Origin: a virus
Lineage: Duplodnaviria; Caudoviricetes
Reading direction: 5' to 3' (one strand)
IMG/VR virus record: IMGVR_UViG_3300049193_000008
Span: 1-41,761 of that record
DNA: 41,761 nt
Both the position numbers and the translations under genes were made by a program. Positions 6,770-38,425 of this stretch are shown here, one piece after another. A model generated the notes under the pieces. That model was not told the origin of the DNA. It saw only the letters and a program-made list of their open reading frames with translations, and made no database searches. Position 1 is the stretch's first letter, and each line of letters starts with the position of its first letter.

Positions 6770-6793
6770 GCTTGATCGCCTTTCGGTAGATCC

Positions 6794-6822
6794 AAAAAGA
6801 AAGGGCGCCCCGCAGGGCGCCC
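6794..6822 (-). terminator. Rho-independent terminator after capsid/decoration genes
   Basis: GGGCGCCC-4 nt-GGGCGCCC stem followed by TTTCTTTTT on the minus strand. Confidence 0.8.
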
Positions 6823-6840
6823 AGGTTGCTGTCGACGAGA

Positions 6841-19963: not shown

Positions 19964-20209
19964 TCAGCCCCCTGCAATAGGTGACGAGGCCGCAAGCTCA
20001 GGCCAGATCTCCGCCCAGTCGTCCGGGCGAAGCATGCGACGGTTCACTGCGCCATCGGTCACGCGCTCGAGCACCGGCGCCAGGCGAATTAGCTTGTCGT
20101 CGGGAATGCCAGACGTGCGCCATGCATGCACAGATGGGGGGCGCACCTTGAGCAGTTTCGCAACAGCAGTCGTGCCGCCAAGCACGTCAATCATTTCGGT
20201 GGGGGTCAT
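19964..20209 (-). CDS. cro: Cro-like repressor (YdaS-type)
   Basis: IDVLGGTTAVAKLLKVRPPSVHAW...LRPDDWAEIWPEL; divergent from cI. Confidence 0.85.
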   Translation of the reverse strand: MTPTEMIDVLGGTTAVAKLLKVRPPSVHAWRTSGIPDDKLIRLAPVLERVTDGAVNRRMLRPDDWAEIWPELAASSPIAGG

Positions 20210-20245
20210 AAAAATGCTTCCTACGAATTGGTGTCCGATGAGCAA

Positions 20246-20274
20246 ATATTAGGAGTAGCTAATTGGAAAGTCAA
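20246..20274 (-). promoter_or_regulatory. PR-like early promoter
   Basis: TTGACT-N17-TAATAT on the minus strand, overlapped by operators. Confidence 0.75.
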
Positions 20275-20313
20275 TAGCCACTCCTAATCGACAAGATATT
20301 AGGATGTGCTAAT
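20248..20313. promoter_or_regulatory. Three OR-like operators (16-bp palindrome ATTAGS-N4-SCTAAT)
   Basis: ATTAGGAGTAGCTAAT 20248, AATAGCCACTCCTAAT 20273, ATTAGGATGTGCTAAT 20298; exact 25-bp spacing. Confidence 0.85.
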
Positions 20314-20707
20314 GACTACACTTGCAGAACGATTACGGGCAGCAATGGCCCATGCGGGGATAAAGCAGGTCGAGCTGGCGCGAGCGTGCGGTGTTCAGCC
20401 CCCCAGCGTGAACGGCTGGTTGAGCGGCAAGGCAAAATTTTTGCGGGGTGAGAATTTGTTGAGGGCGGCTCAAGTGCTGGGCGTCAGCCAAGACTGGCTC
20501 GCTACCGGAAAAGGATCCATGGCACAACCGCCGCGCCAAGAGGCCGGCTTATCCAGTTCGATGAAGTTGACGATCGAAACGGCGGCAGAGTTAAGGCTTT
20601 TGACGGTTTACCGACTTGCGGACGCCAACGGGCGGGGCGCCATCGATGACGTTGTCGATGTTGTACAAGGCCACCTCGACCAGGTTCGCGCCCCCAAGCA
20701 GGCGTAA
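20312..20707 (+). CDS. cI: CI-like repressor (HTH, no S24 peptidase domain)
   Basis: TLAERLRAAM..AGIKQVELARACGVQPPSVNGWLSG...LGVSQDWLATGKG; 131 aa. Confidence 0.85.
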   Translation: MTTLAERLRAAMAHAGIKQVELARACGVQPPSVNGWLSGKAKFLRGENLLRAAQVLGVSQDWLATGKGSMAQPPRQEAGLSSSMKLTIETAAELRLLTVYRLADANGRGAIDDVVDVVQGHLDQVRAPKQA

Positions 20708-20948: not shown

Positions 20949-21236
20949 ATGAAAATTGCGGTTGCGAGTGCCTTGGTTTTAGCGCTTTTTTCTGCAGGCT
21001 GCGCGAGCAGCACAGGTGTAGTCCCCATGGGGCAGGGAATTTACATGGCGTCCCACCAGGACAACGGCTTTACGGCATCGATGGGAGCGGTGAAGGCCGC
21101 AGCCCTGAAGGATGCCGCAGAATTTTGTGCGCAGAGAGGTGAAGACTTTTCAGTGCTAAAAAGTATGGACATCCCAAGGGCCTTGGGGAAGATTCCACAG
21201 TCTTCGATAGAGTTTCGGTGCGTCCCAAAAAAATGA
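20949..21236 (+). CDS. Lipoprotein, moron-like
   Basis: GGAGG RBS, signal peptide with lipobox (FSAG-C), two further Cys, lower GC. Confidence 0.75.
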   Translation: MKIAVASALVLALFSAGCASSTGVVPMGQGIYMASHQDNGFTASMGAVKAAALKDAAEFCAQRGEDFSVLKSMDIPRALGKIPQSSIEFRCVPKK

Positions 21237-21574
21237 ACAAAGACGATATGACTGTCTTCGAAATCGTGGTCCCATGTTCCGACTGCGGTGAAATCTTCAT
21301 GTGCGACGCAATAAACTATCGAAACGGTGTTTGGCTTGTGCCGCACTGGACAAACAACCCTGCCACAGGACGGCGAAGCCCAACGCGAATAATTCGCGTG
21401 GACCGGCTGGGCCTGCTGCGCGGGAAGGCAGCAGTTTTTGGGGATCTGGCAGTTCCAGTGATGACAATATCCAAAGCCTTGCTTGAGGGCCATGCCCAAC
21501 CTTCACCACCCGTTGAACTGATTGAGTCCCCAGCGATCTCATTCCCGATACCTGGTATGGACCGGAATCACTAA
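21233..21574 (+). CDS. Hypothetical moron protein
   Basis: ATGA overlap with the lipoprotein stop; followed by a terminator. Confidence 0.55.
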   Translation: MNKDDMTVFEIVVPCSDCGEIFMCDAINYRNGVWLVPHWTNNPATGRRSPTRIIRVDRLGLLRGKAAVFGDLAVPVMTISKALLEGHAQPSPPVELIESPAISFPIPGMDRNH

Positions 21575-21653: not shown

Positions 21654-21676
21654 ACCCGCCCAGTGCGGGTTTTTTT
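21654..21676 (+). terminator. Rho-independent terminator before PL
   Basis: ACCCGC-CCAGT-GCGGGT followed by a T run. Confidence 0.8.
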
Positions 21677-21724: not shown

Positions 21725-21767
21725 ATTAGGAGTTCCTATTGACACGGAAATTAGCGTGTCCTAATAT
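21725..21767 (+). promoter_or_regulatory. PL-like promoter with two OL operators
   Basis: TTGACA(21739)-N17-TAATAT(21762); operators ATTAGGAGTTCCTATT 21725 and ATTAGCGTGTCCTAAT 21750, 25 bp apart. Confidence 0.85.
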
Positions 21768-21828: not shown

Positions 21829-22569
21829 ATGAACACCGAGAACACCAGCGAACAGAGCGCCGTTGCCGCCGCAGTCGAAAACCTTTTTGTGACCGTGCCC
21901 GAGACGACGCTGCCGAACGGCACCGTGGTGCCGGCCTTCCAGGTTGCCAAGTACTTCGCCTCGCGCGGCGACGACGGCCAGCTGGTGATCAGCGCCACGA
22001 ACAAGCCGCTGAACTACATCGACTACCACGCTGCGCGCCAAGCCTGCATCGACGCCGGCTTCACGCTGCTGACCGAGACGCAAGCGCTGGCGATCGCGGT
22101 GAACATTGCCGGCGTTGCCGCGAACTGGAGCGGCGGTGCCGTGGGAGAGGGCGATCTGCTGCAGGGCCTGCACCTGGACACAGACGACGTGTGGGAGCCG
22201 TACGCCGGCGACACCGTGTCCGCCGATCCGCGCGAAGCCCGCGTGTTCACGCTGTCGAACGGCGAGCAGATCGTAGACGCGGCCGGTAACCTGTACACCT
22301 GGATCTTCGACGACGTGCAGGGCGATGAAAACGGCTTGGTTGCGCGTCCGTTTGCTGCGGACTCCCCGTCGATCACTTCGGCGCCACATCCATCGATGGA
22401 GCGCGGCGTCGGCTGGTATCCCGATGCTGACACTGACTGGTCCGGCTATGCGCTCCTTCGCGGCGGTTGCTGGGGCTCGAACGACCTTGCCGGCGTCTTC
22501 CTCCTCGACATCGACTGGCCGGTCTACGGCAACGTCGTCGTCGGCGTTCGCTGCACCAAAGGTCTCTAG
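21829..22569 (+). CDS. DGR target protein 1 (FGE-sulfatase-like/CLec fold, C-terminal VR)
   Basis: AGGAG RBS; DAAGNLYTW and LLRGG.W...GVRC motifs; 3' end matches the TR. Confidence 0.9.
   Translation: MNTENTSEQSAVAAAVENLFVTVPETTLPNGTVVPAFQVAKYFASRGDDGQLVISATNKPLNYIDYHAARQACIDAGFTLLTETQALAIAVNIAGVAANWSGGAVGEGDLLQGLHLDTDDVWEPYAGDTVSADPREARVFTLSNGEQIVDAAGNLYTWIFDDVQGDENGLVARPFAADSPSITSAPHPSMERGVGWYPDADTDWSGYALLRGGCWGSNDLAGVFLLDIDWPVYGNVVVGVRCTKGL
22439..22553 (+). repeat. DGR variable repeat VR1
   Basis: 115 nt colinear with TR; manual count gives 19 substitutions at TR adenines and 2 at other bases. Confidence 0.92.
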
Positions 22570-22580
22570 TCCCTGGTCCC

Positions 22581-22600
22581 GGGTCGCCGTCAGGTGACCC
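22581..22600 (+). other. Post-VR1 hairpin
   Basis: GGGTCGCC-GTCA-GGTGACCC. Confidence 0.75.
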
Positions 22601-22704
22601 CGCCAGGTGCAATCGATGATCCGTTTCAAGTAACAGCTGACCACCGCGCACCGATAGCCGCGGGTGACGCCGAAACGGATCATCCATTGAGCCAGGAGCA
22701 CGCC

Positions 22705-23007
22705 ATGAGCACAGCACAGCAACCATTGATTTCGCCGCGATATCGCCGCCTGTTCTCCAGCTGGGATTACCACGGGCTGAAGCTGGACATTTACGGAACG
22801 CTCGATAGCGATGGCGCCGAGGTGATCGCGGTGACGCTGCCCGGATCGAATGTAGACCTCGAGGTAATTGTGCTGCCAAGCGTATTCGATGCCGCGCAGC
22901 GCTGGATCGACAAAGTTCTTCCGGAACAGCAGCAGGAAGATCGCGCTGAAGCAAAAGCGGAGCGCGCCGCGTGGGCCCGGCATTCGGCTCAATTTGCAAC
23001 CAGGTAG
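22705..23007 (+). CDS. Hypothetical early protein
   Basis: AGGAG RBS before ATG 22705. Confidence 0.6.
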   Translation: MSTAQQPLISPRYRRLFSSWDYHGLKLDIYGTLDSDGAEVIAVTLPGSNVDLEVIVLPSVFDAAQRWIDKVLPEQQQEDRAEAKAERAAWARHSAQFATR

Positions 23008-23017
23008 GGGAAAAATC

Positions 23018-23191
23018 ATGAACTTCAAAGTGGTGGTGGATTTCCGGCGCGGCGCCGCCTTTTCGACAACCCTGAGCGCGACCGACGAAGAGCACGCGAA
23101 GGAGCTGGCGAAAGCCATGGCACGTGAAAACGGCTTCGATCAGCCGATCGTCAAGACAACGGCCTATCCAGCTAACGCGGTGTGGGGTTGA
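23018..23191 (+). CDS. Hypothetical early protein
   Basis: AGGGG RBS; 57 aa. Confidence 0.55.
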   Translation: MNFKVVVDFRRGAAFSTTLSATDEEHAKELAKAMARENGFDQPIVKTTAYPANAVWG

Positions 23192-23193
23192 TC

Positions 23194-23427
23194 ATGGGCA
23201 CAGCAACCGTCCTACGCGTTATGAAACGCCCGATCCGCAAGATGCTGCGCCCGCTGCGCCTCCGCCTCATCAACTGGCAGATGAAGCATTCGGAAAACGA
23301 GATCCAGCGGCTGCGCTCCTTGCGCAGCGCCCTTATCTACCTGGAAGGGATTGAACACGTCCACCAGGTTCGCCTGGTTATCCGCCGCGCACAAATCGAG
23401 CAGAGCGGATCATGCGCGGCTTCCTGA
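23194..23427 (+). CDS. Hypothetical early protein
   Basis: Basic helical ORF starting 2 nt after the previous stop. Confidence 0.5.
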   Translation: MGTATVLRVMKRPIRKMLRPLRLRLINWQMKHSENEIQRLRSLRSALIYLEGIEHVHQVRLVIRRAQIEQSGSCAAS

Positions 23428-23535
23428 ACCTCTATCGCATGTATCGCCGGCGCGGCCTAAGCGCCCGGCATGCACTGGCACGCGCATTCCGTGTCTGGAA
23501 CCGCGGCTATTAACCACTACCACCAGAAGGAGCTG

Positions 23536-24225
23536 ATGATGTCGAAATCCCTGTTTGTCCCTGTGCCGGAAACCAAGCTGCCGAATGGCTTGACGGTTCC
23601 AGCGTTTATGGTTGGCCAGTACCTGCTTGGCCGCGGCGAAGATATGGCGCCTGCTGTCACAGCCGAATCGACGCCCATCGTTTCCGTCGATTTCTTTCAC
23701 GCACGGGAACTGTGCGACCTGGCCGGCGCCGTGATGATCCGCGAAATGCAGTGGCTGGCCATCGCACACGACATCGCCACGCAGGACATTAACTGGACCG
23801 GTGGCAAGGTGGGCGCCGGCAAGCTATTCCAGGGGCTGCGCAAAGGCAGCGTCAGCGCGGCCCAGGCGGGCACCTATGAGCCGGCGGATCCGGATGAACG
23901 GCGCTGGCACCAGCTGTCGAACGGCGAGCGCGTATATGACTTCGCAGGGAATGCATACAGCTGGGTTTTCGATGACGTCCAGGGGGACGAGCAGGGCCTG
24001 ATTGCGCGCAAATTCACCGCTGAATCGGCATCCATCAACACGCCGGCCTATAGCTCCGAAACGTCCGGTATGGGCTGGTACCCGGCACCTGGCCGGGACT
24101 GGTCCGGCTATGCGCTCTTGCGCGGCGGCTCTTGGTTCTCGTACGTCTATGCCGGCGTCTTCTTCCTCGCCTTCGGCTGGCCGGGCTACGGCAACTGCAG
24201 CGTCGGCGTTCGCTGCACCAAATAG
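23536..24225 (+). CDS. DGR target protein 2 (FGE-sulfatase-like/CLec fold, C-terminal VR)
   Basis: AAGGAG RBS; paralog of target 1 (VPET.LPNG..VPAF, NW.GG.VG.G.L, DFAGNAYSW.FDDVQGD); 3' end matches the TR. Confidence 0.9.
   Translation: MMSKSLFVPVPETKLPNGLTVPAFMVGQYLLGRGEDMAPAVTAESTPIVSVDFFHARELCDLAGAVMIREMQWLAIAHDIATQDINWTGGKVGAGKLFQGLRKGSVSAAQAGTYEPADPDERRWHQLSNGERVYDFAGNAYSWVFDDVQGDEQGLIARKFTAESASINTPAYSSETSGMGWYPAPGRDWSGYALLRGGSWFSYVYAGVFFLAFGWPGYGNCSVGVRCTK
24101..24215 (+). repeat. DGR variable repeat VR2
   Basis: 115 nt colinear with TR; manual count gives 22 substitutions at TR adenines and 1 at another base. Confidence 0.92.
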
Positions 24226-24250
24226 CGCGGGCGTCTGGTCAGTGGTCTCG

Positions 24251-24271
24251 GGTCGCCGCAAAGCGGTGACC
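24251..24271 (+). other. Post-VR2 hairpin
   Basis: GGTCGCCGC-AAA-GCGGTGACC. Confidence 0.75.
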
Positions 24272-24301
24272 GCACACTTGAAATTTGATAGGAGAAAATT
24301 G

Positions 24302-25366
24302 GTGAATTCACCCACGAGCAATGCCCTGGCAGTTCGCCAGGAATTCGGCGGCACCAGCATGTCTCTGGCTGTCGCGGAAACCTCGTCTGCAGCTGTCGCA
24401 GCACAGGCAAAAGCAATGGTCGAGGCGCGCTACATTATGGCGATGCAGCGCCCACGCGATTGGGATCAAGTACGGCAAAACCTGATGAAGGAATGCCGGC
24501 GCCCGAGCTTCGCGCACAACAAGTCCGCCTACTATCGAAAACCGATCGGGCAGGGCGTGGAAGGCCTGGGTATCCGCTTTGTGGAAGTGGCATTGCGCTG
24601 CATGACAAACGTGCTGGTGGAGACCAGCATGATTTTCGAGGACACCAGCAAGGAAGTCCATCGTGTGGCGGTCACCGACCTGGAATCGAACATCACCTAC
24701 CCGCTGGACGTGCGTGTTTCGAAAACGGTCGAACGCAGCAAGCCGATGGATGATGGATCGTACATTAGCGTACGCACCAACAGCTACAACAAGCCTGTGT
24801 TCACGGTCCCGGCCAACGAGGATGACCTGCTGAACAAGCGTGCCGCACAGATCTCCAAGGCTATCCGTACGCTGGGCCTGCGCATCATCCCTGGTGACAT
24901 GCAGGATGAGGCGGAAGACATCATCAAAGCCGTTCGCATGGACCAGGCCGCACGCGACCCCGACGCCGAGCGCAAGAAGATCGCCGACGCCTTTGCTGGC
25001 ATCGGCGTGAAGGTTAGCGACCTGGTCGACTACCTGGGCCACTCGCTGGATACATGCTCTCCGGCCGAACTGGTCGACCTGCGCGGCATATACGGCGCCA
25101 TCAAGGACGGTGAAGCCACATGGAAATCGGTGATGGACAACCGCGAAGAGCAGAGCGATGCGCCGAAGACCAAGGAAGCCGCGTCTCCGAAGGAGCGCTC
25201 CATCTGCACCGATGATGAGTTCAAGGCGAAGACCTCCGAGTGGCGAAAGGTCATCCTGGGTAAGAAGAAGTCCGTGGCCGACCTGATCGCCTTTATTGAA
25301 ACCAAGATGCAGCTGACCGAAGAGCAGAAGCTCACGATCGACAGCTGGTCGCACGAGCAGGAGTAA
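24302..25366 (+). CDS. Putative recombination/ssDNA-annealing protein
   Basis: AGGAG RBS then GTG 24302; directly upstream of the YqaJ exonuclease. Function inferred from position only. Confidence 0.5.
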   Translation: MNSPTSNALAVRQEFGGTSMSLAVAETSSAAVAAQAKAMVEARYIMAMQRPRDWDQVRQNLMKECRRPSFAHNKSAYYRKPIGQGVEGLGIRFVEVALRCMTNVLVETSMIFEDTSKEVHRVAVTDLESNITYPLDVRVSKTVERSKPMDDGSYISVRTNSYNKPVFTVPANEDDLLNKRAAQISKAIRTLGLRIIPGDMQDEAEDIIKAVRMDQAARDPDAERKKIADAFAGIGVKVSDLVDYLGHSLDTCSPAELVDLRGIYGAIKDGEATWKSVMDNREEQSDAPKTKEAASPKERSICTDDEFKAKTSEWRKVILGKKKSVADLIAFIETKMQLTEEQKLTIDSWSHEQE

Positions 25367-25371
25367 GCGCC

Positions 25372-26988
25372 GTGAAAATTGTCAACCTAATCCAGGGAAG
25401 CGCGGAATGGAACAATTTCCGCCAGCCCCGCCATGGTTCCAGCGAGACAGCCGCAATGCTGGGCCTGTCGCCAAACGTCTCGCGCACCGAACTGCTGCAC
25501 ATGAAGCACACCTGCACGCCAAAGGAATTCTCTGACTGGGTGCAGATCAACATCCTGGACTATGGGCACGAAGTCGAAGCGATGGCGCGACCCATCGGCG
25601 AACAGGTCATAGGCACCGAACTGTACCCTGTCACTTGCGTTGATGACGACGACCGCTTGATAGCATCCTGCGATGGCCTCACCATGGCGGAGGACGAAGG
25701 CTGGGAGCACAAGCAGTGGAATGAAGAGCTGGCCTCTGCCGTCGCCGCCGGCACCGTACCTGACACCCATATGCCGCAAGTGCAGCAGCAACTGATGATC
25801 ACTGGCGCCAGCCGCTGGCTGTTCATGGTGTCGGATGGAACGCCGGAGAAGTGCGTCTATACCTGGGTGCTGCCGGATCTGGCTTGGTTCGAACGAATCC
25901 GCGCCGGCTGGGATCAGTTCGACGCTGACCTGGCCATCTACGAGCCGAAGAACTTCGCACCTAAACCGGTGGCCGATGTAATCAAGGCGCTGCCGGCGCT
26001 GGCGGTCCAGATCAAGGGCGAGGTCACCTTCAGCAATCTGCCGATTGTGAAGGCAAAGGCGGACCAGTTCATCGCCAACATCAAGACCGACCTGCAGAAC
26101 GACGACGACTTCGCCAACGCTGAAGCCACGGTGAAATTTTGCGGTGAAGCAGAGACCAATCTGGAACTGGCAAAGCAGGCGGCAATCGCGCAGACGGCCA
26201 GCATTGACGACGTCATGCGCACCATCGACTACATCCGCGACCAGCTGCGTGAGAAGCGCTTGATGCTGGAAAAGCTGGTCAAAACCCGCAAAGACCAGAT
26301 CAAGGAACAGATCCTGGTCGGCGTGAAGAAGAAATTCGTCGACCACGTTGCGACACTGGAAGCTGAAATTGTACCGATCCGCCTGGTCTATCAGGCATGC
26401 GACTTTGCTGGTGCCATGAAGAACAAGCGCACGCTCGCCACCTTGCACAACGCGGTCGACACCGAACTGGCCAATGCCAAGATCGCGGTCGACGCGATTG
26501 CCAAGGCCGTGCGCGGTCGCCTCACCTGGTACCGCGCCAACGTGGGCGACTACGAGGCGCTGTTTGCCGACCTGCAGGCCGCCATCCAAAAGCCGGACGA
26601 AGACTTCCAGCTGCTGGTGAACACCCGCATCGCAGACCACAAGGCCAAAGAAACAGCGCGCCAGGCTGCGGCGGTAGCGGCCGCACAAGCTGCCCCAGCG
26701 CCTACCGAAGTACCACGCACGACTTTGGCGCCGGCTGCCGCATGGCCATTTCCGGTCCCGCAGGTGGGTGCAGCGCTGACACCTGTTACGCCGCCAAGTC
26801 TGCGCATAGGGCAGATCGCCGATCGCCTGGGCTTCCCGTTGACCGCCGAATTCCTTAAGGGACTAGGCTTCGAGCCGGCCGGCAAGGACCGCGCCGCGGT
26901 GCTGTACCACGAATCCGATTTCCCCAACATCTGCCGCCGGCTGATCGAACACATCAGCCAGGTGCAGATGCAACCGCAGGCAGCATGA
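25372..26988 (+). CDS. YqaJ-like (lambda Exo family) exonuclease with coiled-coil extension
   Basis: QGSAEW...R...GSSE, GHEVEAMAR, IASCDGL, WEHK and PQVQQQL motifs. Confidence 0.88.
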   Translation: MKIVNLIQGSAEWNNFRQPRHGSSETAAMLGLSPNVSRTELLHMKHTCTPKEFSDWVQINILDYGHEVEAMARPIGEQVIGTELYPVTCVDDDDRLIASCDGLTMAEDEGWEHKQWNEELASAVAAGTVPDTHMPQVQQQLMITGASRWLFMVSDGTPEKCVYTWVLPDLAWFERIRAGWDQFDADLAIYEPKNFAPKPVADVIKALPALAVQIKGEVTFSNLPIVKAKADQFIANIKTDLQNDDDFANAEATVKFCGEAETNLELAKQAAIAQTASIDDVMRTIDYIRDQLREKRLMLEKLVKTRKDQIKEQILVGVKKKFVDHVATLEAEIVPIRLVYQACDFAGAMKNKRTLATLHNAVDTELANAKIAVDAIAKAVRGRLTWYRANVGDYEALFADLQAAIQKPDEDFQLLVNTRIADHKAKETARQAAAVAAAQAAPAPTEVPRTTLAPAAAWPFPVPQVGAALTPVTPPSLRIGQIADRLGFPLTAEFLKGLGFEPAGKDRAAVLYHESDFPNICRRLIEHISQVQMQPQAA

Positions 26989-27012
26989 CCACCCACTACC
27001 ACCGAGGAATTC

Positions 27013-27663
27013 ATGAATACCATCCTGTTCTACGACACCGAAACCACTGGCCTGCCCAACTGGAGCATGCCCAGCGAAGATCCATCTCAGCCGCGTGTGA
27101 TCGAGCTGGCGGCCGAACTGTGCGAAGAGTCCACCGGCATTACGCTGGGCCAGATGAATGTTGTCATTCGCCCCAGTGGTTGGACGATCCCGGCCGAAAT
27201 CGCGCAGTTGACCGGCATCACGCAGGAACTCGCTGAAGCTGTGGGCGTTCCCATGGACAGTGCGCTGTCGAATTTCCTGGAACTCTGGATGAATGCCGAC
27301 CAGCGTGGCGCTCATAACGAGAGCTTTGATATGCGCATGATTCGCATCGAGATCATGCGGCACGACCGCTACATGGGCGAGACGATGACGACTGAAACCG
27401 GGGCTGTGCCGTTTGCCGACTATTGGAAAAAGGCTCCCGCCTACTGCACCCAGTCGAACAGCGTGAAGATCATCAACCTACCGCCGACGGCGAAGATGAT
27501 CGCGGCAAAGCGCCTGGGACCGAAGTCGCCAAACTTGGCCGAGGCATACGAATTCTTCACCGGCCAGAAGCTGGAAGGTGCCCACCGCGCGATGGCTGAT
27601 GTGCAGGCCTGCAAGGCGGTCTACTACGGCATCAAGAACCACGGCCTGAAGGATGCCGCTTGA
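27013..27663 (+). CDS. DEDDh 3'-5' exonuclease (DnaQ-like)
   Basis: FYDTETTG, AHNESFD and AHRAMADV motifs. Confidence 0.9.
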   Translation: MNTILFYDTETTGLPNWSMPSEDPSQPRVIELAAELCEESTGITLGQMNVVIRPSGWTIPAEIAQLTGITQELAEAVGVPMDSALSNFLELWMNADQRGAHNESFDMRMIRIEIMRHDRYMGETMTTETGAVPFADYWKKAPAYCTQSNSVKIINLPPTAKMIAAKRLGPKSPNLAEAYEFFTGQKLEGAHRAMADVQACKAVYYGIKNHGLKDAA

Positions 27664-27896
27664 TCATGCGCCTGTCCGCCTGGCTAGCCCTTCGCTGTAA
27701 GGAACCACTATTCCAGCAGTTCCTGCGCGTCCCGAACGAGGCGCTGGCCGTTACGTCCGTGCGCGCCATCTGCGAAGTGAAGAGCCGGGCGGAAGTCGAT
27801 ACTGATCCTCGCGCCCAGCAGCGATTCCACGATTTCATCCGTAAGCCATACCTGAAGTTCACTGAAGACCAACGAAAGGAAGCAAGCAATGTTTGA
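27660..27896 (+). CDS. Hypothetical protein
   Basis: VRAICEVKSRAEVDTD motif common in phages; overlapping start/stop. Confidence 0.6.
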   Translation: MIMRLSAWLALRCKEPLFQQFLRVPNEALAVTSVRAICEVKSRAEVDTDPRAQQRFHDFIRKPYLKFTEDQRKEASNV

Positions 27897-28413
27897 ACTG
27901 CCAAAACAGCAGGTGAAGTTGATCAAGGCGTCCACGCCGATGGAAAACCACGGTAAGGATTACAAGCTTGCATGCGTGCTGACTGTCGAAGCGACGATGT
28001 CGAACAATGCGCTGGAGCTGTTCGCGGCAGGCTTGCGCGATTCGTTGTACCGCATGGCCGCCAAGGAAGACCAGGTCGACCTGGTCACGGACCCGGACGG
28101 CCCGACTGTGCTGCGCTTCCCCAAGATGTCGCCATTCGACTGGGATTACACCGGCACCGGCTACACGGCAATCGTGGACTACGGCCTGGGCGGCGACAGT
28201 GATATCAAGCTGACCGACGCCAAGGTTGACGCGTTCCAGCTCACGCCGATGGAAGGCGGCTCGATCGTTGTGCGCTTCAACGTGGTGGTGCATCCGTCGG
28301 CGCTGGACACCGGCCGGCTGTGCGAAAAGCAGAAGCAGAACATCGACCTGACCGTGACCGCGCCGGCCCCGGCCACCGTGCACGAGCTGTTTGGCGAAGA
28401 ACAAGCCGCCTGA
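27889..28413 (+). CDS. Hypothetical protein
   Basis: 174 aa with strong codon bias, within the operon. Confidence 0.7.
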   Translation: MFELPKQQVKLIKASTPMENHGKDYKLACVLTVEATMSNNALELFAAGLRDSLYRMAAKEDQVDLVTDPDGPTVLRFPKMSPFDWDYTGTGYTAIVDYGLGGDSDIKLTDAKVDAFQLTPMEGGSIVVRFNVVVHPSALDTGRLCEKQKQNIDLTVTAPAPATVHELFGEEQAA

Positions 28414-28424
28414 AAGGACTGACC

Positions 28425-29306
28425 ATGAGCATTCAAATCATCGAGACCAAAGCATTCACTTTGCGCGCGGGTGACCGCTATTTGCCAGGCTTCCGCAATG
28501 ACGGTACCTGGAATGGCCTGCGCAAAATGCTGGACAACCAGGGCCGCTACATCATCCTGGACGGCGATAAGGCCGTGAAGGGCACTGAATCTCTGCTGCT
28601 GGAGCTGGGCCTGCTGGCCGGCACGGACGAATACGTGACGGTACCGGAAACGACGTTGCCAACCGGCCAGGTGGTCCCAAGCTTCCAAGTCAGCAAGTAC
28701 ATGCTGGGCGAGGGTCAGAACCGCCCGCCGGTAATTTCGGCTGAGGCCAAGCCGCTGGCAAACATCAATTACGCGGCGGCCCGCAAGCTGTGCTCGGACA
28801 TCGGCGCCACGATGATCACGGAAACCCAGGCCCTGGCGATCGCGGTGAATATCGCCAGCATGGCAGTGAACTGGAGCGGTGGTGAAGTCGGCGCCGGCAA
28901 GCTGCATCGTGGCATTCATAAAGGCTCGGTGAGCACGGCCCAGCCTGGCAACGTGGAAGTTTCGGGCGAAGAACGCCGCTGGCATGAGCTGACCAATGGC
29001 CAGCGCATCTACGATTGGTCGGGGAACCTGTGGACCTGGGTTTTCGATGACGTGCAGGGTGATGCCGCTGGTCTGGTGAAGGGACGGATTGAAGCAGATT
29101 CCCCCTCGCTGCGCTGTGCGCCGGAAAACTGCCAGGAAAAAGGCGGCGGCTATGTCCCTTCGGGGCCGCTGAACTGGTCCGGCGGTGCGCTCATGCGCGG
29201 CGGCTACTGGTTCTCGGGCGACCGTGCCGGCGTCTTCCGCCTCTACTACGACTGGCCGGTCGACGGCTACTCCTACGTCGGCGTTCGCTGCACCAAGGGT
29301 CTCTGA
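28425..29306 (+). CDS. DGR target protein 3 (cassette-proximal, with N-terminal extension)
   Basis: AAGGA RBS; same paralog motifs (DWSGNLWTW.FDDVQGD); about 65 extra N-terminal residues; 3' end matches the TR. Confidence 0.9.
   Translation: MSIQIIETKAFTLRAGDRYLPGFRNDGTWNGLRKMLDNQGRYIILDGDKAVKGTESLLLELGLLAGTDEYVTVPETTLPTGQVVPSFQVSKYMLGEGQNRPPVISAEAKPLANINYAAARKLCSDIGATMITETQALAIAVNIASMAVNWSGGEVGAGKLHRGIHKGSVSTAQPGNVEVSGEERRWHELTNGQRIYDWSGNLWTWVFDDVQGDAAGLVKGRIEADSPSLRCAPENCQEKGGGYVPSGPLNWSGGALMRGGYWFSGDRAGVFRLYYDWPVDGYSYVGVRCTKGL
29176..29290 (+). repeat. DGR variable repeat VR3
   Basis: 115 nt colinear with TR; manual count gives 20 substitutions, all at TR adenines. Confidence 0.95.
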
Positions 29307-29318
29307 TCACTGGTCCCG

Positions 29319-29340
29319 GGTCGCCGCGTAAGCGGTGACC
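29319..29340 (+). other. Post-VR3 hairpin
   Basis: GGTCGCCGC-GTAA-GCGGTGACC (GNRA-type loop). Confidence 0.8.
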
Positions 29341-29375
29341 GCACTCCCACCACCAATTATTGAAAGGATATAGAA

Positions 29376-30230
29376 ATGCCAGTTCAAGAAAACCAATCCC
29401 CGACGCAGGATGAAATTCAGCAGCATGCGCTCACCAAATTCAAAGGCATCGATGTGGGCCTGGGAAAGGATGATCCGTTGGTTGGTATCGCAGCGAAGCT
29501 GGAATTGCAGTATCCGAACCACCTGATCCTGGTCCAAGCTGGCAAATTCTTGCATGCGTTTAACAAATCTGCGCATGCCCTACATACCCTGAAGGGATAC
29601 CAGCTGAAACTGCTGGGAACGGTCGATGCGCCGCATCTGCGCGTGGGCTGCCCGGCCGGCAATTTCAAAAAGCGCCTGTGGCCCATGGTGGCGGAATTTG
29701 GTATCCCGTACGTGGTGGCGTTGGGCACGCTGGCGGCCGGCCACACCGTGTATGTGTCCGACCAGGGCGGCGCCCAGTCGTCAGTGCTGGCCGCCGTGAC
29801 GCCGGAGATCGTGCAGCAGGTCATTGAGGATTTGCGCCAGCGCGGCAACCTGAACCAGGCGGCCGCCAAGAAGGTGCTGGCGAATCCAGACACGGCCGGC
29901 TTCAAGCTGAAGCAGCAGGCCCAGGCGCTGGACGCCCAGCTGCTGCAGGACATCATCAAGATGCCGCGCGATCTGCGCGTGACCTACGGTGAAAACCTGC
30001 GCGCGTGCATGGCGCGGCTAATGCGCGCCATCTTCGCTTTCGGCCTGGACAGCAACAAAACTGCGCTGCTGGCCGCTATTTCGGCCGACATCGACCTGCT
30101 GAAACACTATCTCGCCCAGGCACCGCGGCTAAGCCGTCTCAAGTTCGCATTTGAGCATCGAGTGGGCTTAACCGTTGAACTTGGGCGCTTGGTGGGCGGT
30201 CTGATCCGCGCCGACAAGGTGTCGCCATGA
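29376..30230 (+). CDS. avd: DGR accessory protein: MutS domain I-like N-terminus fused to Avd
   Basis: N-terminal QYPNHLILVQAGKFLHAF..SA..L...RVGCP resembles MutS_I. C-terminal helical KMPRDLR..YGE.LR...ELGRLVGGLIR is Avd-like. Located between VR3 and TR. Confidence 0.8.
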   Translation: MPVQENQSPTQDEIQQHALTKFKGIDVGLGKDDPLVGIAAKLELQYPNHLILVQAGKFLHAFNKSAHALHTLKGYQLKLLGTVDAPHLRVGCPAGNFKKRLWPMVAEFGIPYVVALGTLAAGHTVYVSDQGGAQSSVLAAVTPEIVQQVIEDLRQRGNLNQAAAKKVLANPDTAGFKLKQQAQALDAQLLQDIIKMPRDLRVTYGENLRACMARLMRAIFAFGLDSNKTALLAAISADIDLLKHYLAQAPRLSRLKFAFEHRVGLTVELGRLVGGLIRADKVSP

Positions 30231-31501
30231 TCAACGAAGGGGGATTTCTGGAAGGTCCAGCAATGCGCTCATACGCGGCGGCTACTGGTACTCGAACGAC
30301 AATGCCGGCGTCTTCAACCTCAACAACGACTGGCCGGACAACGACAACAACAACGTCGGCGTTCGCTGACCCAAAAATTACATGCCTGGACGGCTCGCCA
30401 AGTGCACGCCGGAGGCCTATTCTTGGTCGAGATTCTCCTGGGGGATCCCCGAAAGCAGGGCCACAAGCCAAACCGAAGACCGCGCCGGGGCCCAAGGGTG
30501 CCGGCGCGGAAAGCGGCTCCACCTTCGAACACCTGACCAGCCTGCCGCACTTGTTCCAGTGCTGGTCGAAGGCAAAACAGAACAAGTCCAACAACCTGCG
30601 CGTGCAGCGCTTCGACCAGGATCCGCTGCGGCACCTGGTGGCGATCCAGCAGCGCCTGCGCGCCGGTGCATACGATTTCGGGCCATACAAGACCTTCGTG
30701 GTGCGCGAGAAGAAGTGGCGCGATGTTGTCGACGCGCCAATGAAAGACCGCGTGGTGCATTGGATGTTGTACCAGCACTTGCTGCCGATCTGGCAGCCGC
30801 GCCTGATCGATGACACATACGGCAACCTGCCATTGCGCGGCACCCATGCAGCGGTGCGCCGGGTGGCCCAGTTCGCGCGCGGCGCCGGCGCGCAGTGGGT
30901 GCTGCAGCTGGACATCTCGAAGTACTTCTACAGCGTGCAGCACGACCTGCTGAAGGTACGCGCGCTGCGCTATATCGGCGACCAGCGCCTGCGGGAACTG
31001 ATAGTCCGCCTGGTCGGTTCGTTCCGCACTGGGGCCGGCTACGATCATTTGTTCGCCGAAGACAGCGCCTACCGCCGCACGGCGGCCAAGGGCATGCCGA
31101 TCGGCGCGCTGTCATCGCAGCTGTTCGCCAACATCTACCTGGCCGACTTCGACCGCTGGGTGAAGCAGGAGCTGGGCGTGCGGCGGTACGTGCGCTACGT
31201 GGACGACCTGGTGGTGCTGGGCGCAGACCCGGACGAACTGCGCGACGTGCGCGCCCATATGGTGGCGCGCCTGGCGGAGGATGGTCTGACGATCCACCCG
31301 CACAAGATGCGCCTGGCGCCGGCCGCCGCCGGCATTCCATACCTGGGCTATGTGGTATGGCCAAACCATGTATCGGCTGGCGCCTACATCCGTGGGCGCT
31401 ACATACGCCGGCTACGCGAGCATGAGAGCGGCATCTACGACCGCAGCGAGACGCTGCAGGCCTACGGCGCCATGCTGGCGCACACCGGGAGTTCGATATG
31501 A
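30227..31501 (+). CDS. DGR reverse transcriptase
   Basis: KDRVVH, LQLDISKYFYSV, GMPIGALSSQLFANIYL (DGR-type GxxxSQ), YVRYVDD and IPYLGY motifs. Start codon uncertain. Confidence 0.95.
   Translation: MINEGGFLEGPAMRSYAAATGTRTTMPASSTSTTTGRTTTTTTSAFADPKITCLDGSPSARRRPILGRDSPGGSPKAGPQAKPKTAPGPKGAGAESGSTFEHLTSLPHLFQCWSKAKQNKSNNLRVQRFDQDPLRHLVAIQQRLRAGAYDFGPYKTFVVREKKWRDVVDAPMKDRVVHWMLYQHLLPIWQPRLIDDTYGNLPLRGTHAAVRRVAQFARGAGAQWVLQLDISKYFYSVQHDLLKVRALRYIGDQRLRELIVRLVGSFRTGAGYDHLFAEDSAYRRTAAKGMPIGALSSQLFANIYLADFDRWVKQELGVRRYVRYVDDLVVLGADPDELRDVRAHMVARLAEDGLTIHPHKMRLAPAAAGIPYLGYVVWPNHVSAGAYIRGRYIRRLREHESGIYDRSETLQAYGAMLAHTGSSI
30254..30368 (+). repeat. DGR template repeat (TR)
   Basis: AAC-rich; 29 adenines in 18 codons of the VR frame. 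Ends GTTCGCTGACCC versus GTTCGCTGCACC in all three VRs (IMH*/IMH difference). Confidence 0.95.
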
Positions 31502-33089: not shown

Positions 33090-33817
33090 GAAAAGAATTG
33101 AACCCGAAGCTGTGCTGCAAACGCCAGGGCGGAATATGCGCTTGCGATCCCGATTTTTGCAGCTTTCCAACCATCATTACGTCAATTCAGCCAGCGCCTA
33201 AAGCCATGGCTGTAAAGAACTTGACCGGCTTGCCGCTGGTGATCACGTTCAATGGCATCGACGGCGACATTCCTTCAACTATTACCTTGAAGATGGCAGC
33301 GCCAGTTGAGCAGGACCAGCGATACGAAATGCTGCAGCGGTTGCTGGCCCTGGCGGAACGACTGCAAAAGCGTGTTCTGACGTGGCGCGAGTTTGAGGGA
33401 GTGGTAGCTGATCGGCTGCGTGCCGCCGCGCCTGCTGGGTATGAGCATGAGCAGTTCGAACAGTGGCTTCTAGGCGCTGCCGCTAATGAGATTCGAAAAG
33501 CCACTGGGATGCCCACAAACACACCAATCGCATGGAACCCCAATTTTTTGGCGGCGGCCCGGGGCGGTTGGAACGCTCGCGCCGCCATCGCAGCCCAGCA
33601 GCCAGCGCACGAACTGCACATCCAGGGCCGCACACCAGACGGTCGCACGGTCGACCTGCCGATCTTCGGTGGCGGCTCCCATGACGGCAAGCAGTTGATC
33701 CTGGTGGCGCTGCCGGCGCCGGATACGACCAGCCCCGTCACCTGCTGCAACGGCAACTGCAACCAGGGCCGCGACTGCCCGCTGCGCAAACCAGTAACTG
33801 CAGGGAGGGCGGAATGA
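33086..33817 (+). CDS. Hypothetical mosaic protein with C-terminal CCNGNCNQGRDCP motif
   Basis: 243 aa; ATGA overlaps on both sides. Confidence 0.55.
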   Translation: MRKELNPKLCCKRQGGICACDPDFCSFPTIITSIQPAPKAMAVKNLTGLPLVITFNGIDGDIPSTITLKMAAPVEQDQRYEMLQRLLALAERLQKRVLTWREFEGVVADRLRAAAPAGYEHEQFEQWLLGAAANEIRKATGMPTNTPIAWNPNFLAAARGGWNARAAIAAQQPAHELHIQGRTPDGRTVDLPIFGGGSHDGKQLILVALPAPDTTSPVTCCNGNCNQGRDCPLRKPVTAGRAE

Positions 33818-34023
33818 TTGAAGTTTTGAGCCGGGAAGAAGTGGAGGAGCTGACCCGCTACAAGCGCCCAAAAGAGCAAATGCAGCAGCTCGCCGAAATG
33901 GGTGTGCCGGCCACGCTTTTGCGCGATAACACCGTGCGCGTGCTGCGCGCCCATCTGACCAATCCGAATACCACGGCAGCAGGGCAAATCAGCGCGCCAC
34001 GGCGCAAATCGGCGGGCAGATGA
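33814..34023 (+). CDS. Putative excisionase (DUF4224-like)
   Basis: LSREEVEELTRYKRPKEQ..QL..MGVP motif; overlaps the integrase start. Confidence 0.75.
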   Translation: MIEVLSREEVEELTRYKRPKEQMQQLAEMGVPATLLRDNTVRVLRAHLTNPNTTAAGQISAPRRKSAGR

Positions 34024-35174
34024 ACCGCAGGCGCAGGAAAGACAAAGACCTGCCACAGCGCGTCTACGTCAAGTTCGGGGCCTATTACTTCGTGCCGGTG
34101 GAGCCGATGTATGTGCCGGCCACGAAAAAGAAACAGTCCTGGATAAAGCTGTGCCGCGTCGACGATGGGAAGAGCCGGATGCTGGTGGAACTTGCTGCGC
34201 TGATCGGCGGCCCGACAAGCGTGGCCGGCAGCATTCCGTTCCTATGCCGCGATTTCAAAGAAACCAAGCTGGCGAAGTACACGAAAGAAGTGCAGGCGCA
34301 GTATTCGCAGTACCTGGACGTTATCGCTGACGAGTTCGAAGCGTTCCACGCCAGCGAGGTCACCACCAAGGAATTCGCCGACTTCCTGCACGAGCGCTTC
34401 GGCGACATGCCGAACACGGCACAGAAATACATCGCGCTGGCGCGCAAGTTGTTCAAACACGCGATCTCGCGGCACGGCCTGCGCCAGGACAATCCTGTCG
34501 ACCAGCTGGACCCCGCCGACTTCGAAACCGCCAGGCGCGAATTCCTGCCCACGCACGACCAAGTGGCGCTAATTCGGAAATGGGGTCAGCTCGGCAAGGT
34601 GAAGGGCGATATCGGCAAGCGCGTGGCAACGAAGAGCGGGCCCATGTTCGCCTGCATTATCGACATGACCTATCTGCTATGGGCGCGCGCCATCGACATC
34701 CGGCAGCTGCGTGAAGACCAGATCGCGGACGGGCGCATCCGGATCCAGGCGACGAAGACAAAAAAGACCAGCGGCAAGGTGGTGGACTTTGTGATTACGC
34801 CGCAGATTCAGGGCGTGATTGACCGCGCCAGGGCAATCAAGGCGGGGATGGGGATGGCCGACAACGACTACCTGTTCCCGACGCGGAACGGCACGCCGTA
34901 CACGAAATCGGGCCTGTTCTCGATGTGGGATCGGGCCCGGGAGCGCGCCGGCATCACCGAGCCAGTGTGGTTCCGCGACCTGCGTGCGCTGGGCGCCACG
35001 GACGCGCTGAAGGCCGGTGAAGCGAAAACCGGCATTCAGGACCGCCTGGGCCACACGTCGCAACGGACCACGGAAATCTACTTGAAGGAGGCCGTCGCCG
35101 TGGCTTCGCAGATCGATCTGGCGCTGCCATGGGCATCTAATACCGGTGATGAAAGCGCGGAACTCCCGGGCTGA
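34020..35174 (+). CDS. int: Tyrosine integrase
   Basis: Catalytic pattern ARAIDI, K (TKTKK), FRDLR, LGHT and TEIY; LPQRVY..K.GAYY arm-binding N-terminus. Confidence 0.93.
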   Translation: MNRRRRKDKDLPQRVYVKFGAYYFVPVEPMYVPATKKKQSWIKLCRVDDGKSRMLVELAALIGGPTSVAGSIPFLCRDFKETKLAKYTKEVQAQYSQYLDVIADEFEAFHASEVTTKEFADFLHERFGDMPNTAQKYIALARKLFKHAISRHGLRQDNPVDQLDPADFETARREFLPTHDQVALIRKWGQLGKVKGDIGKRVATKSGPMFACIIDMTYLLWARAIDIRQLREDQIADGRIRIQATKTKKTSGKVVDFVITPQIQGVIDRARAIKAGMGMADNDYLFPTRNGTPYTKSGLFSMWDRARERAGITEPVWFRDLRALGATDALKAGEAKTGIQDRLGHTSQRTTEIYLKEAVAVASQIDLALPWASNTGDESAELPG

Positions 35175-35373
35175 AAGTATCGCGGCGCGGCGCTGTATAT
35201 TGGATGCTCATCAGCGAAAGCTAGCATTCATGCGGGTTGCAGCAGGTAGCCAGCGTCAATGGGGTGCAAGGGGTCGGAAGTTCGAATCTTCTCGCCCCGA
35301 CCAATAGATTCAACAGCTTGCATTGCAAACTGTACGTAAACCCACCACTGGATATTAGATGGTTATCTAATAC
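35135..35373. repeat. Probable integrase arm-type sites ATCTAATA flanking the att core
   Basis: ATCTAATAC at 35135 and 35365; inverted TATTGGAT at 35198 and TATTAGAT at 35353. Confidence 0.6.
35259..35303 (+). other. attP core: 3' half of tRNA-Pro(GGG)
   Basis: ATGGGGTGCAAGGGGTCGGAAGTTCGAATCTTCTCGCCCCGACCA gives anticodon loop, T-arm, acceptor 3' strand and CCA. No 5' half. Lies 84 nt after int. Confidence 0.88.
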
Positions 35374-36724: not shown

Positions 36725-38425
36725 TCAGCCGTCAATTGAGTAAGAAAAATTAAGTACGAGTGTGCCCGCAGCAGAATACGGGACATTTGCCGGTGCGCCC
36801 CCGCCAACTGGGTATTGGCTAATGGTAATGTAGTTTGATGCGATATCCACGTATGCAGTTGCAACATAACCAGCAGTCAGTGGGACATTGATTTGCCCGA
36901 TAGTAACCGGAACATTTAACTCGGAGTTGCAGGAGTACGGAAGATTCCCGACGCGTAGAATTCCAGCGCCGGTCCCTCCAGTCCAAACCACTTCCACTTC
37001 ACACTGCACCAAACGGCCAAGCTTTGTAATGCGGCCTGCCTGTTTCGAATAAGTAGCTGTTCCTGCTGTTGGAGAGCCGGCTACAACTGGAAGGAAAGAA
37101 GTGGCCGCGTTAATTTCGCGGTAGTCGTCGAACGCATATCTGTCGTCGATTGGGTTTTGCACGGCCGGAAATTTCACAAACCCACGCAACAGGTCAATAG
37201 ACTGGATTGTGCTGATTGATGAACCAAACCAATTACAGAATGTCCCGCTAATAGTGAATAGTTGATTTTGGTCCGGGTGATATACGCTACACGCGTAGCC
37301 AGCGATCCGACCGGTTCCGGCGGTGTTGCCTTCATTAAAATCGCCGCCAATGATTGTATGGTATCTGGACTCAGCTGCTCCACCATTAACAGTACTGGAA
37401 ATGTCCAGGCCCCACCCACCATTTACTTCAGTGAGACAGTTTTCAACAGTCACCCAAAAGCAGTGCCCCAGCTTAATACCGTCACTGGCATTGCCAGTTG
37501 CGAAACATTTACGAAGAACACCCGCGTTAGCGTCTGGTCCCTCCGCCGTAGTGGAATGGTGAACATAAAACCCGCGACCGCCATTGTTTTGTGAAAATAC
37601 CTCCTCAACAAGAAACGAGTTGCTATTCCCGCTGCTAGTTGATTTGCTTCCAATGCGAACGCCATCACCATCATTGCCAATACTGAATGATTTTATTAGT
37701 TTCGAAGAGTTCCCCAAGAGTTGAAATCCATCACCGCCATTACCCGCCTCAGCAACAATACCGCCCCCTTGAAATTCGCTATTCGCCCCAAGTACCACAG
37801 CAGTACCGTTCAGTGAGGCCGATTTCAAGAAGTACGAGTCAGGTGTCCCTGCGACGCTAGTCCCGCCTTGGAACCGTATTTTCTTGCCATCGGGGACAGT
37901 GAGAGTGGAGGTAAGTGTAATAACTACTCCGCGTGGAATTAAAACTTCGGTCGCACTGGATGTCAGGGCCGCTACCAACGCAGCCTGATTACTTCCGAAG
38001 TCACTGACACTGACCGACTCACGCAACTTGTCGCGAATATACCGATATATGGCGCCCGCACCGGATTGAATCCATCCAACCAACGCAGCCCCCGCACTGG
38101 ATAGCAGCGACGTCACAAATGTTGACAGAATTCCGTCCGCATAAGAGTTGGTCGAAACGAAATTATCCAATGGAAAACCAGTGATGCTTATTCCATAGGC
38201 GCTTTTGACATCGACCTTATACGCGCCGTTCCAATAAATAGTTGCCTCTCCTTTTGCATCCAGTTGGATTGGATTTGTATGGGGAACCAGCCCAGCGGAA
38301 TCGGTATATGCGGCTTTCGGGGTACTCGTTCCAGCGGCATACGTATAGACGAGACCAAAGGCCAGCGTCCGGCCATTTGAATCAAAATATTTGTTCCGGC
38401 CATTCGGCATCAGTGCAGTACTCAT
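36725..38425 (-). CDS. Tailspike / receptor-binding protein with beta-helix
   Basis: Head-binding N-terminus (YFDSNG..LA.G.VYTYAAGTSTP...NPI.LD..G), SVSDFG linker, repeated NGG.G/DG beta-helix rungs, low GC. Confidence 0.85.
   Translation of the reverse strand: MSTALMPNGRNKYFDSNGRTLAFGLVYTYAAGTSTPKAAYTDSAGLVPHTNPIQLDAKGEATIYWNGAYKVDVKSAYGISITGFPLDNFVSTNSYADGILSTFVTSLLSSAGAALVGWIQSGAGAIYRYIRDKLRESVSVSDFGSNQAALVAALTSSATEVLIPRGVVITLTSTLTVPDGKKIRFQGGTSVAGTPDSYFLKSASLNGTAVVLGANSEFQGGGIVAEAGNGGDGFQLLGNSSKLIKSFSIGNDGDGVRIGSKSTSSGNSNSFLVEEVFSQNNGGRGFYVHHSTTAEGPDANAGVLRKCFATGNASDGIKLGHCFWVTVENCLTEVNGGWGLDISSTVNGGAAESRYHTIIGGDFNEGNTAGTGRIAGYACSVYHPDQNQLFTISGTFCNWFGSSISTIQSIDLLRGFVKFPAVQNPIDDRYAFDDYREINAATSFLPVVAGSPTAGTATYSKQAGRITKLGRLVQCEVEVVWTGGTGAGILRVGNLPYSCNSELNVPVTIGQINVPLTAGYVATAYVDIASNYITISQYPVGGGAPANVPYSAAGTLVLNFSYSIDG

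Follow-up and report, generated by a model that had tools for sequence, protein, structure and literature searches.

A diversity-generating retroelement with three target genes in the predicted early operon of a temperate soil podophage

The locus

The window analysed here (the whole of virus record IMGVR_UViG_3300049193_000008, 41,761 bp) is one near-complete temperate podophage from soil, and its plus strand carries an intact multi-target diversity-generating retroelement (DGR). The element comprises one template repeat (TR), one reverse transcriptase (RT) gene, one accessory gene in which a MutS-I-like segment (MSL) is fused to Avd, and three variable repeats (VRs), each with a hairpin and an end like an initiation of mutagenic homing (IMH) site; this inventory is the sequence basis of the mechanism proposed below. 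Each VR forms the 3' end of one of three paralogous target genes (Table 1). A computational alignment bears out the first-pass annotation of this DNA, which had aligned the TR without gaps to all three VRs and had counted 61 of the 64 substitutions at TR adenines (Fisher p = 7e-43, an indicative value since the three VRs share one TR). The same annotation had placed VR1 about 7.8 kb from the TR and had described the three VRs as encoding different sequences; VR1 starts 7,815 nt upstream of the TR, and any two of the VR peptides are unlike at 12-15 of their 37 residues. When the whole window, including the tailspike gene at 36725-38425 that had been said to have no VR, is scanned on both strands with tolerance for mismatches at A, the TR and the three VRs are the only matches.

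Table 1. Features of the window, in order of position
Feature	Positions	Strand	Basis or remarks
cro-like gene, rightward early operon	19964..20245	-	Pfam P22_Cro/YdaS, PHROG repressor
Three operator-like ATTAG-N6-CTAAT sites (oR-like) over cro-directed promoter	20248..20313	.	motif scan
cI-like helix-turn-helix repressor	20306..20707	+	family matches
GC stem and T run, likely terminator ending the cI transcript	21654..21676	+	by-eye reading; absent from the motif-scan output
pL-like promoter TTGACA-17-TAATAT (21739-21767) with two overlapping operator-like sites (21725-21740, 21750-21765)	21725..21767	+	
Target 1, 246 aa, FGE-type CLec	21829..22569	+	
VR1	22439..22553	+	21 mismatches to TR, 19 at TR A
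IMH-like stretch, GGTCNCN repeats, hairpin after VR1	22554..22601	+	
Target 2, 229 aa, FGE-type CLec	23536..24225	+	Pfam FGE-sulfatase; AlphaFold2 pLDDT 95.7; TaqVP Z 17.1
VR2	24101..24215	+	23 mismatches to TR, 22 at TR A
IMH-like stretch and hairpin after VR2	24216..24272	+	
Intervening early genes: PHROG 3657 unknown, YqaJ/RecE-like exonuclease, DEDDh exonuclease, two small unknowns	24296..28413	+	
Target 3, 293 aa: 69-aa N-terminal domain and FGE-type CLec	28425..29306	+	
VR3	29176..29290	+	20 mismatches to TR, 20 at TR A
IMH-like stretch and hairpin after VR3	29291..29341	+	
MSL-Avd fusion, 284 aa: MutS-I-like N-terminus, bAvd C-terminus	29376..30230	+	
Reverse transcriptase, YVDD; frame starts on the Avd stop (ATGA), crosses TR and spacer	30227..31501	+	RVT_1 E 3e-26
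TR, 29 A in 115 nt, 18 variable codons, ~5e16 possible peptides	30254..30368	+	
IMH*-like TR end, unlike VR ends	30369..30379	+	
Excisionase and tyrosine integrase, end of the same co-directional run	33814..35174	+	
Tailspike-like beta-helix protein, without VR; comparison gene outside the DGR	36725..38425	-	

All three VRs run into an IMH-like stretch with GGTCNCN repeats and a GC-rich hairpin downstream, whereas at the end of the TR there is an IMH*-like stretch of different sequence and no hairpin. Across the family a predicted hairpin with a stem of at least 7 pairs follows 87 of 99 VRs, against 5.7 expected in shuffled sequence; Guo 2011 (PMC3240598) describes the downstream hairpin as required for homing in Bordetella phage BPP-1. 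A degron or docking motif was one reading of the '-GL' with which many targets end, but in shorter targets the same DNA motif continues past the stop codon, so '-GL' is a DNA element and that reading was dropped.

The predicted early operon

On the minus strand lie the capsid, portal, terminase and ejection protein genes, the tailspike-like gene and the endolysin, together with cro, cII and the replication genes; the plus strand holds cI, the three targets, recombination nucleases, the DGR, xis and int. The motif ATTAG-N6-CTAAT occurs at 5 sites in the window against 0.25 expected, 3 of them between cro and cI and 2 over a pL-like promoter that stands 62 nt ahead of target 1, the first gene behind it. 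Operators shared between the cro/cI interval and the leftward promoter are the lambdoid oR/oL layout, and on this layout a CI-repressed early operon likely opens with target 1 and includes the mutator. In the window the common motif is found at both the oR-like and the oL-like sites and overlaps the promoters, as predicted for a lambdoid leftward early operon under CI, and the pL-like promoter and its operator motif also support the placement of the targets among early genes in the first-pass annotation.

Several other features of the window are recorded here. Between cI and the pL-like promoter, at 20949-21574 on the plus strand, a small lipoprotein-like gene and a Cys-containing 118-aa gene sit where lysogen-expressed exclusion genes would; neither has family matches. 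Directly after the capsid genes (5237-6877, minus strand) lies a fusion of a methyltransferase and a GT9 glycosyltransferase, which possibly modifies the virion or host surface. The 3' half of a tRNA-Pro-like sequence just after int (35259-35303) is likely attP, and contigs in two sequencing runs extend there into a tRNA 5' half.

The target proteins

The three targets are mutually 52-53% identical. The best structural matches of the AlphaFold2 model of target 2 are FGE-type C-lectins: TaqVP, with which it aligns over 210 residues at Z 17.1 and a root-mean-square deviation of 3.3, and TvpA (Z 15.1), while the BPP-1 protein Mtd follows at Z 14.0 over Mtd residues 177-375 only. This supports the CLec fold that had been proposed from sequence, with the VR at the C-terminus; for targets 1 and 3 the same fold is assigned through their 52-53% identity and an Atlas model. 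A search of PDB sequences gives FGE matches at E 0.4-0.7 only. FGE itself has two cysteines after RGGS (RGGSYLCHDSYC), whereas the target family has RGG[C/Y/S]W and no Cys pair; in FGE the cysteine pair is catalytic. Neither an effector domain nor, on the window's three targets, an Lcl_C/DUF1566 match was found; the latter is present instead at the relative's locus L059.

The N-termini of the targets fall into short ones, two recurring domains of 70-85 aa and occasional others such as DUF4406; they range from 3 to 175 aa and are freely swapped among relatives, with no common attachment domain. Two of the N-terminal classes, B and C, have no Pfam name, and although class B also occurs as small stand-alone phage proteins this gives no functional clue. 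No signal-like start or lipobox was found among 141 distinct targets in a crude hydropathy screen in which the window's own lipoprotein scored clearly. The earlier description of the targets as stand-alone CLec domains without a signal peptide is therefore upheld as to the signal and needs amending for target 3, whose 69-residue N-terminal domain recurs in relatives. As a 229-aa domain with 18 variable codons, target 2 is a compact binder scaffold.

The accessory protein and the reading frame through the TR

Residues 175-281 of MSL-Avd match bAvd (E 7e-5) and DivGenRetAVD (E 1e-7), both below the curated cut-offs, and the PHROG Avd family. MutS_I matches are found in 20 of 28 MSL-Avd homologues at E up to 0.1 (best 1.9e-5), the window protein alone giving E 0.08; a single-sequence AlphaFold model was unusable (pLDDT 44), and a SIGIRR match of the MSL profile (E 0.007) is probably accidental and was disregarded. 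In Bacteroides, host MutS is reported to limit retrohoming (PMC11601372), and the MSL part may accordingly shield the heteroduplex.

The RT, with its catalytic YVDD intact, adjoins the TR and matches PHROG 1423 at E 1e-95. At the Avd-TR junctions of the window (30227-30466) and its relatives, an ATG overlaps the Avd stop as ATGA in 48 of 48 cases, and the frame that it opens continues through TR and spacer in 47, as against 16 and 1 for the other two frames and 2.9 expected in shuffles (the segments are about 76% alike). This frame is in frame with the RT in 36 of 46 loci, 22 of which have no other start. By these patterns the TR RNA appears to be translated; a TR that overlaps the RT frame is a class already described by Schillinger 2012 (PMC3521204). 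Some relatives carry cargo genes between spacer and RT, encoding a Dam-like methylase, a PAPS-reductase-like protein, an N6/N4 methylase and others (L020:15613-16740, L025:15699-16928, L028:12807-13817, L081, L055 and L088); these are mostly fused in frame to the TR leader, with the RT coupled behind them.

The lineage across relatives

Searches for the lineage returned 70 viral and 20 genome loci (one of them, L090, spurious) and 516 proteins. Named hosts are almost all Betaproteobacteria, the lineage spanning Oxalobacteraceae, Rhodocyclales, Gallionellaceae and Methylotenera, and cultured, non-pathogenic lysogens include Pseudoduganella rivuli, Solimicrobium silvestre, Undibacterium arcticum and Aromatoleum toluclasticum; one host genome (G012) holds two such prophages. 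Neither target 2 nor MSL-Avd has a tblastn match among 50,697 cultured-phage records. Within the fetched flanks, the 53 distinct loci with a TR carry one target (9 loci), two (36) or three (8), and in 17 of the 53 a VR lies more than 4 kb from the TR.

The A-specificity seen in the window holds throughout. For 99 unique TR-VR pairs in a fixed 114-nt frame, 1571 of 2493 A sites differ against 24 of 8789 non-A sites; the pairs were first found with a score that forgives mismatches at A, 3 of 115 lacked an anchor and were left out, and the 99 may include one or two that are not genuine pairs, as at L084, which lacks an RT and whose 'TR' ends like a VR. The VRs also tend to follow their own locus: for 108 of 112, none of the other 41 TRs is a better match than the local one, and the window VRs show 0-2 non-A mismatches to their own TR as against 7-9 to the best foreign one. 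In a tree built by a quick method without the VR (117 rows, duplicates removed, 20 sequences dropped for want of a core anchor or for short length) the window paralogs fall on separate branches. The window targets are, on these sequence comparisons, old paralogs held in register by the local TR.

At 864 AAY codons in the VRs the most frequent outcomes include Tyr (187), Gly (126), Arg (112) and Asp (110), while Cys occurs 6 times where 80 would be expected under independence. Tyr enrichment was rejected as proof of selection, because the RT can itself be biased: bRT intrinsically favours Tyr at AAC (PMC12875486). Only the Cys deficit and the Arg excess, both from related samples, then hint at selection.

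The target complement of the lineage is uneven. At L108:15154-17809 (L023, G004) two targets with unlike N-termini have near-identical cores, which suggests recent duplication or gene conversion, and at L011:2587-7519 four target paralogs precede MSL-Avd on a contig that stops before the TR. Target copies are broken in L079, L086 and G010, and orphan targets without their DGR occur in G077 and L059. The G077 copy lies before replication genes, and MSL-Avd was not found in that genome; L059 (3444-11381) combines an orphan FGE-type target with an unrelated two-target DUF1566-type DGR in the same early operon, the RT frame of which also crosses its TR.

Early genes apart from the virion

The relation of the DGR to the tail was examined in 12 relatives, ten of them whole phage records and two prophage regions, all scanned as unjoined pieces, and PHROG scans in these relatives covered 109 of 129 large open reading frames. 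In all 12 the TR matches only its 2-3 paralogs and never a tail gene, and in 11 of the 12 the head and tail genes are antisense to all targets. The exception, G011, has its third VR (L130:6395-7321) on the opposite strand, 15 kb from the TR, with 0 non-A and 20 A mismatches, and this third target, between cro and a replication gene, is also early. The phages that carry the element are otherwise diverse, with short, long and contractile tails among them: sheath-bearing (G004, G007), with a tape measure (G003, G009, G015), or podophage-like (the window, G001, G005, G006, G008). Two of the podophage-like relatives, G006 (L115:1153-4423) and G008 (L120:11645-15357), possess a second, separate DGR, encoded on the late strand, that has a TR, Avd, RT and tail-fibre target of its own and in which 18 of 18 and 12 of 12 TR-VR mismatches, respectively, fall at A. 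Since these two phages diversify a tail fibre by a separate DGR, the early DGR is not their tropism switch, and the occurrence of the same targets across tail types and beside an independent tail-fibre DGR strengthens the reading that they are not virion proteins.

In a wider comparison of 87 loci, early markers were found in 46, for 45 of these in the window's orientation, and none of the loci matched the window's late proteins, which is an insensitive test. A tail target of the BPP-1 type is a receptor-binding protein with fibre or trimerisation domains; the window targets instead lie in the predicted early operon, antisense to the late genes, only the CLec part of Mtd aligns with them, and the tailspike has no VR. 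That the targets are early and non-virion is, on this genomic evidence, well supported.

Variation at the variable repeats

The first-pass annotation had named A-specific variation at the remote VRs of related phages as a test of its reading, and such variation is present. Between L020 and L025 there are 38 differences in 1,970 nt, all in two VRs that lie 5-6 kb from the TR and 36 of them at TR adenines; between L005 and L006, 8 of 8 differences are at A and the 450 nt upstream are unchanged. From these sequence pairs it is clear that remote VRs are actively rewritten in relatives. For target 2 of the window, one database protein differs only at the last three AAC codons (NCS to DRV, at the protein level only). 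An A-masked TR pattern gave 0 matches in metagenome contigs, a set that may not include this phage's own records, and in viral contigs 6, which trace without exception to two copies of the window phage. One RNA run (X24) yielded scattered low-depth contigs too sparse for expression or timing.

Proposed mechanism and alternatives

Following the BPP-1 mechanism, RT and Avd would reverse-transcribe TR RNA, erring at adenines, and a VR would be replaced by the cDNA, the hairpin marking each target so that its distance from the TR would not matter. CI would silence the operon in the lysogen, and infection or induction would bring targets and mutator into expression together; new VR alleles would arise in replicating genomes and be tried in the next host. 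Judged from the predicted operon, this cycle of silencing, co-expression and trial of alleles is very probable. The target products probably stay in the cytoplasm and out of the virion. There they would bind and block their ligands as phage sponge or inhibitor proteins do, several paralogs permitting several ligands at once; blocking by binding is the simplest mode for proteins with no effector domain. Host defence proteins, blocked by binding, rank first among the ligand classes, at slightly under an even chance. The adaptive anti-defence repertoire suggested in the first-pass annotation is a hypothesis, though the leading one. Taken whole, the proposal that a multi-target DGR in a likely CI-repressed early operon diversifies three cytoplasmic CLec binders that neutralise fast-changing host proteins, most likely defence factors, stands in our view evenly balanced. 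The methylase cargo inserted inside some cassettes counts in its favour. More tentatively still, and somewhat below an even chance, temperate phages of Betaproteobacteria may have twice recruited DGRs (FGE/MSL-Avd and DUF1566) into their earliest operon as an antibody-like panel of intracellular binders, re-diversified in each lytic cycle, that disables host immunity apart from tail-fibre tropism switching. If the ligands are defence proteins, the system would be a programmable, evolving counter-defence, and pull-downs would offer a route to host immune factors.

Several observations weigh against this proposal. Operator function and the continuity of the operon over 13 kb are inferred from motifs. 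The targets have no match in PADLOC, whose library holds defence and not anti-defence models, and in a 2026 gut-virome preprint (10.64898/2026.03.05.709809) none of 2,930 DGR targets was a known anti-defence protein. The local population of the window phage also looks nearly clonal at its VRs, with less turnover than a fast arms race suggests: the window's target 2 allele is found on 17 contigs and the variant on 1, no variants of VR1 or VR3 occur among 3 and 5 cluster members, respectively, and none of any VR in Logan contigs of 7 DNA runs, where contigs lose rare alleles and more than one of the runs may come from the source sample itself. Possible tail receptor-binding parts have been seen in TaqVP, whose structure is the closest, and in its Bacteroides relatives, and among 18 large matches checked the nearest homologues outside the family are the tips of exported Ig-rich or pilin-like proteins, so an extracellular ligand is the ancestral, or at least a common, condition.

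These last two points favour action outside the cell, by loosely attached virion accessories or lysis-released products that bind surface receptors or glycans. The fold is common to Mtd and TaqVP, PHROG 2889 is matched by these targets and likewise by the G008 tail fibre at its tip, and Roux 2021 (PMC8144416) warns that unannotated targets may be unknown structural proteins. Against extracellular action stand the early operon antisense to the late genes, the three tail types, the freely swapped N-termini without a shared attachment domain, and coexistence with a true tail-fibre DGR, and we regard it as quite unlikely. Ligands from other mobile elements, with the targets as variable antirepressors or competition factors against resident-prophage repressors, exclusion proteins or the proteins of co-infecting phages, would share the early, cytoplasmic anatomy of the proposed binders. 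Prophage repressors are highly variable ligands, the G012 host has two such prophages, and regulators typically stand first behind pL; a quiet lysogen, however, could draw no protection from a CI-repressed operon, which weakens the superinfection-defence version, and ligands of this class are unlikely overall.

Near-clonality at the VRs would fit a slowly changing ligand, such as a core host regulator or enzyme bound for takeover or for lysis-lysogeny tuning, diversification then serving adaptation to new host species and not to defences. The taxonomic breadth of the lineage and the persistence of orphan targets without a DGR agree with this, but the VRs of closely related phages are wholly unlike one another, an outcome that a conserved ligand would not favour, and we consider such ligands very unlikely. 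Least probable of all, and hardly to be expected, is a cassette largely selfish or near neutral, in which recombination adds target copies to a mosaic early region and their scrambling by retrohoming brings little benefit. Target number does vary (1 to 3 or more), some copies are broken, and the Tyr bias can be intrinsic to the RT. Yet the 99 VRs contain 0 stops (AAY cannot give stops, and the samples are related), Cys is depleted at AAY codons in the same related samples, the frames are intact, the hairpins exceed expectation, and in L059 and Burkholderia phage Magia the same slot is taken by an unrelated DUF1566 DGR.

Comparison with known systems

The only phage DGR studied experimentally, according to PMC8008677, switches receptor tropism. 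That element, the Bordetella BPP-1 DGR (mtd-avd-TR-brt), has in common with the window its gene order, its A-specific TR-VR differences and a C-terminal VR in a CLec fold, and the two are alike in their IMH/IMH*-like ends and downstream hairpin. The closest solved structures, TaqVP (5VF4) and Treponema TvpA (2Y3C), are single-domain FGE-type CLec DGR proteins like the window targets. TaqVP is prophage-encoded and has been described as monomeric (PMC6328139), and T. denticola has remote paralogous targets; however, identity is 18-19%, TaqVP is 381 aa long with larger inserts, and TvpA is thought to act at surfaces.

The lineage itself has been catalogued once, in what is available of the catalogues, and is uncharacterised. 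By eye, DGR t060 of Sideroxydans lithotrophicus ES-1 (CP001965.1_1972697; Wu 2018, PMC5758913; Schillinger 2012, PMC3521204) shares the target family and the long Avd and has a similar RT start; its order is TG-AVD-TR-RT with a second target 6.7 kb away, giving two targets against the window's three. The listing gives it as chromosomal and with a 'hypothetical protein' and notes no phage homologues, and in the entries available it does not call the long Avd an MSL fusion and offers no early-operon or functional reading. A literature search at the level of titles and abstracts, with subscription journals mostly outside it, found no description of this lineage as a prophage early-operon DGR.

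The first-pass annotation, which had set its three dispersed targets beside BPP-1, implied less precedent for the arrangement than there is. Wu 2018 counts about 15% of DGRs as multi-target and many phage DGRs as having a non-adjacent target, with Ralstonia CMR15 tabulated with three targets, at -8.2 and -5.9 kb, and Schillinger 2012 finds that distant paralogs diversify independently. Phage Magia (NC_070954; PMC7883833) has one target soon after the repressor and one beside Avd-RT, followed by xis and int, all antisense to the tail genes as in the window; its announcement reads the DGR as adaptation or host range. Magia and the DUF1566/CLec2 DGRs with 2-3 targets in Ralstonia, Burkholderia, Collimonas and Janthinobacterium (Wu 2018; Roux 2021, PC_00009) differ from the window in having DUF1566-type targets of 120-130 aa as opposed to FGE-type targets of 230-300 aa, a plain Avd in place of MSL-Avd, and an RT only 30% identical. 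In Quimbyvirus (Benler 2021, PMC8008677; Roux 2021, PC_00007) a distal target, likewise antisense to the structural module, has been proposed to act in phage-host conflict; there one TR serves both a tail-module and the distal target, whereas in the window lineage all targets are early and diversified tails have their own DGR, and the hosts are Bacteroidota as against Betaproteobacteria.

The layout thus has precedent in t060 and in the non-structural targets of Magia and Quimbyvirus; what sets the window's element apart as a variant is that all its targets are early and very probably non-virion. Surveys treat phage targets as mostly tail proteins, Roux 2021 leaving two large phage target clusters as 'non-structural/unknown', and for such targets the present lineage is a clean test case, being early, signal-less, independent of tail type and, in two phages, accompanied by a separate tail DGR. 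Cytosolic variable receptors have been the subject of speculation for cells (PMC10053308). Beyond these known systems, the window lineage adds phages with dual DGRs, operator evidence for the early position of the element, and a DUF1566 cassette interchangeable with it.

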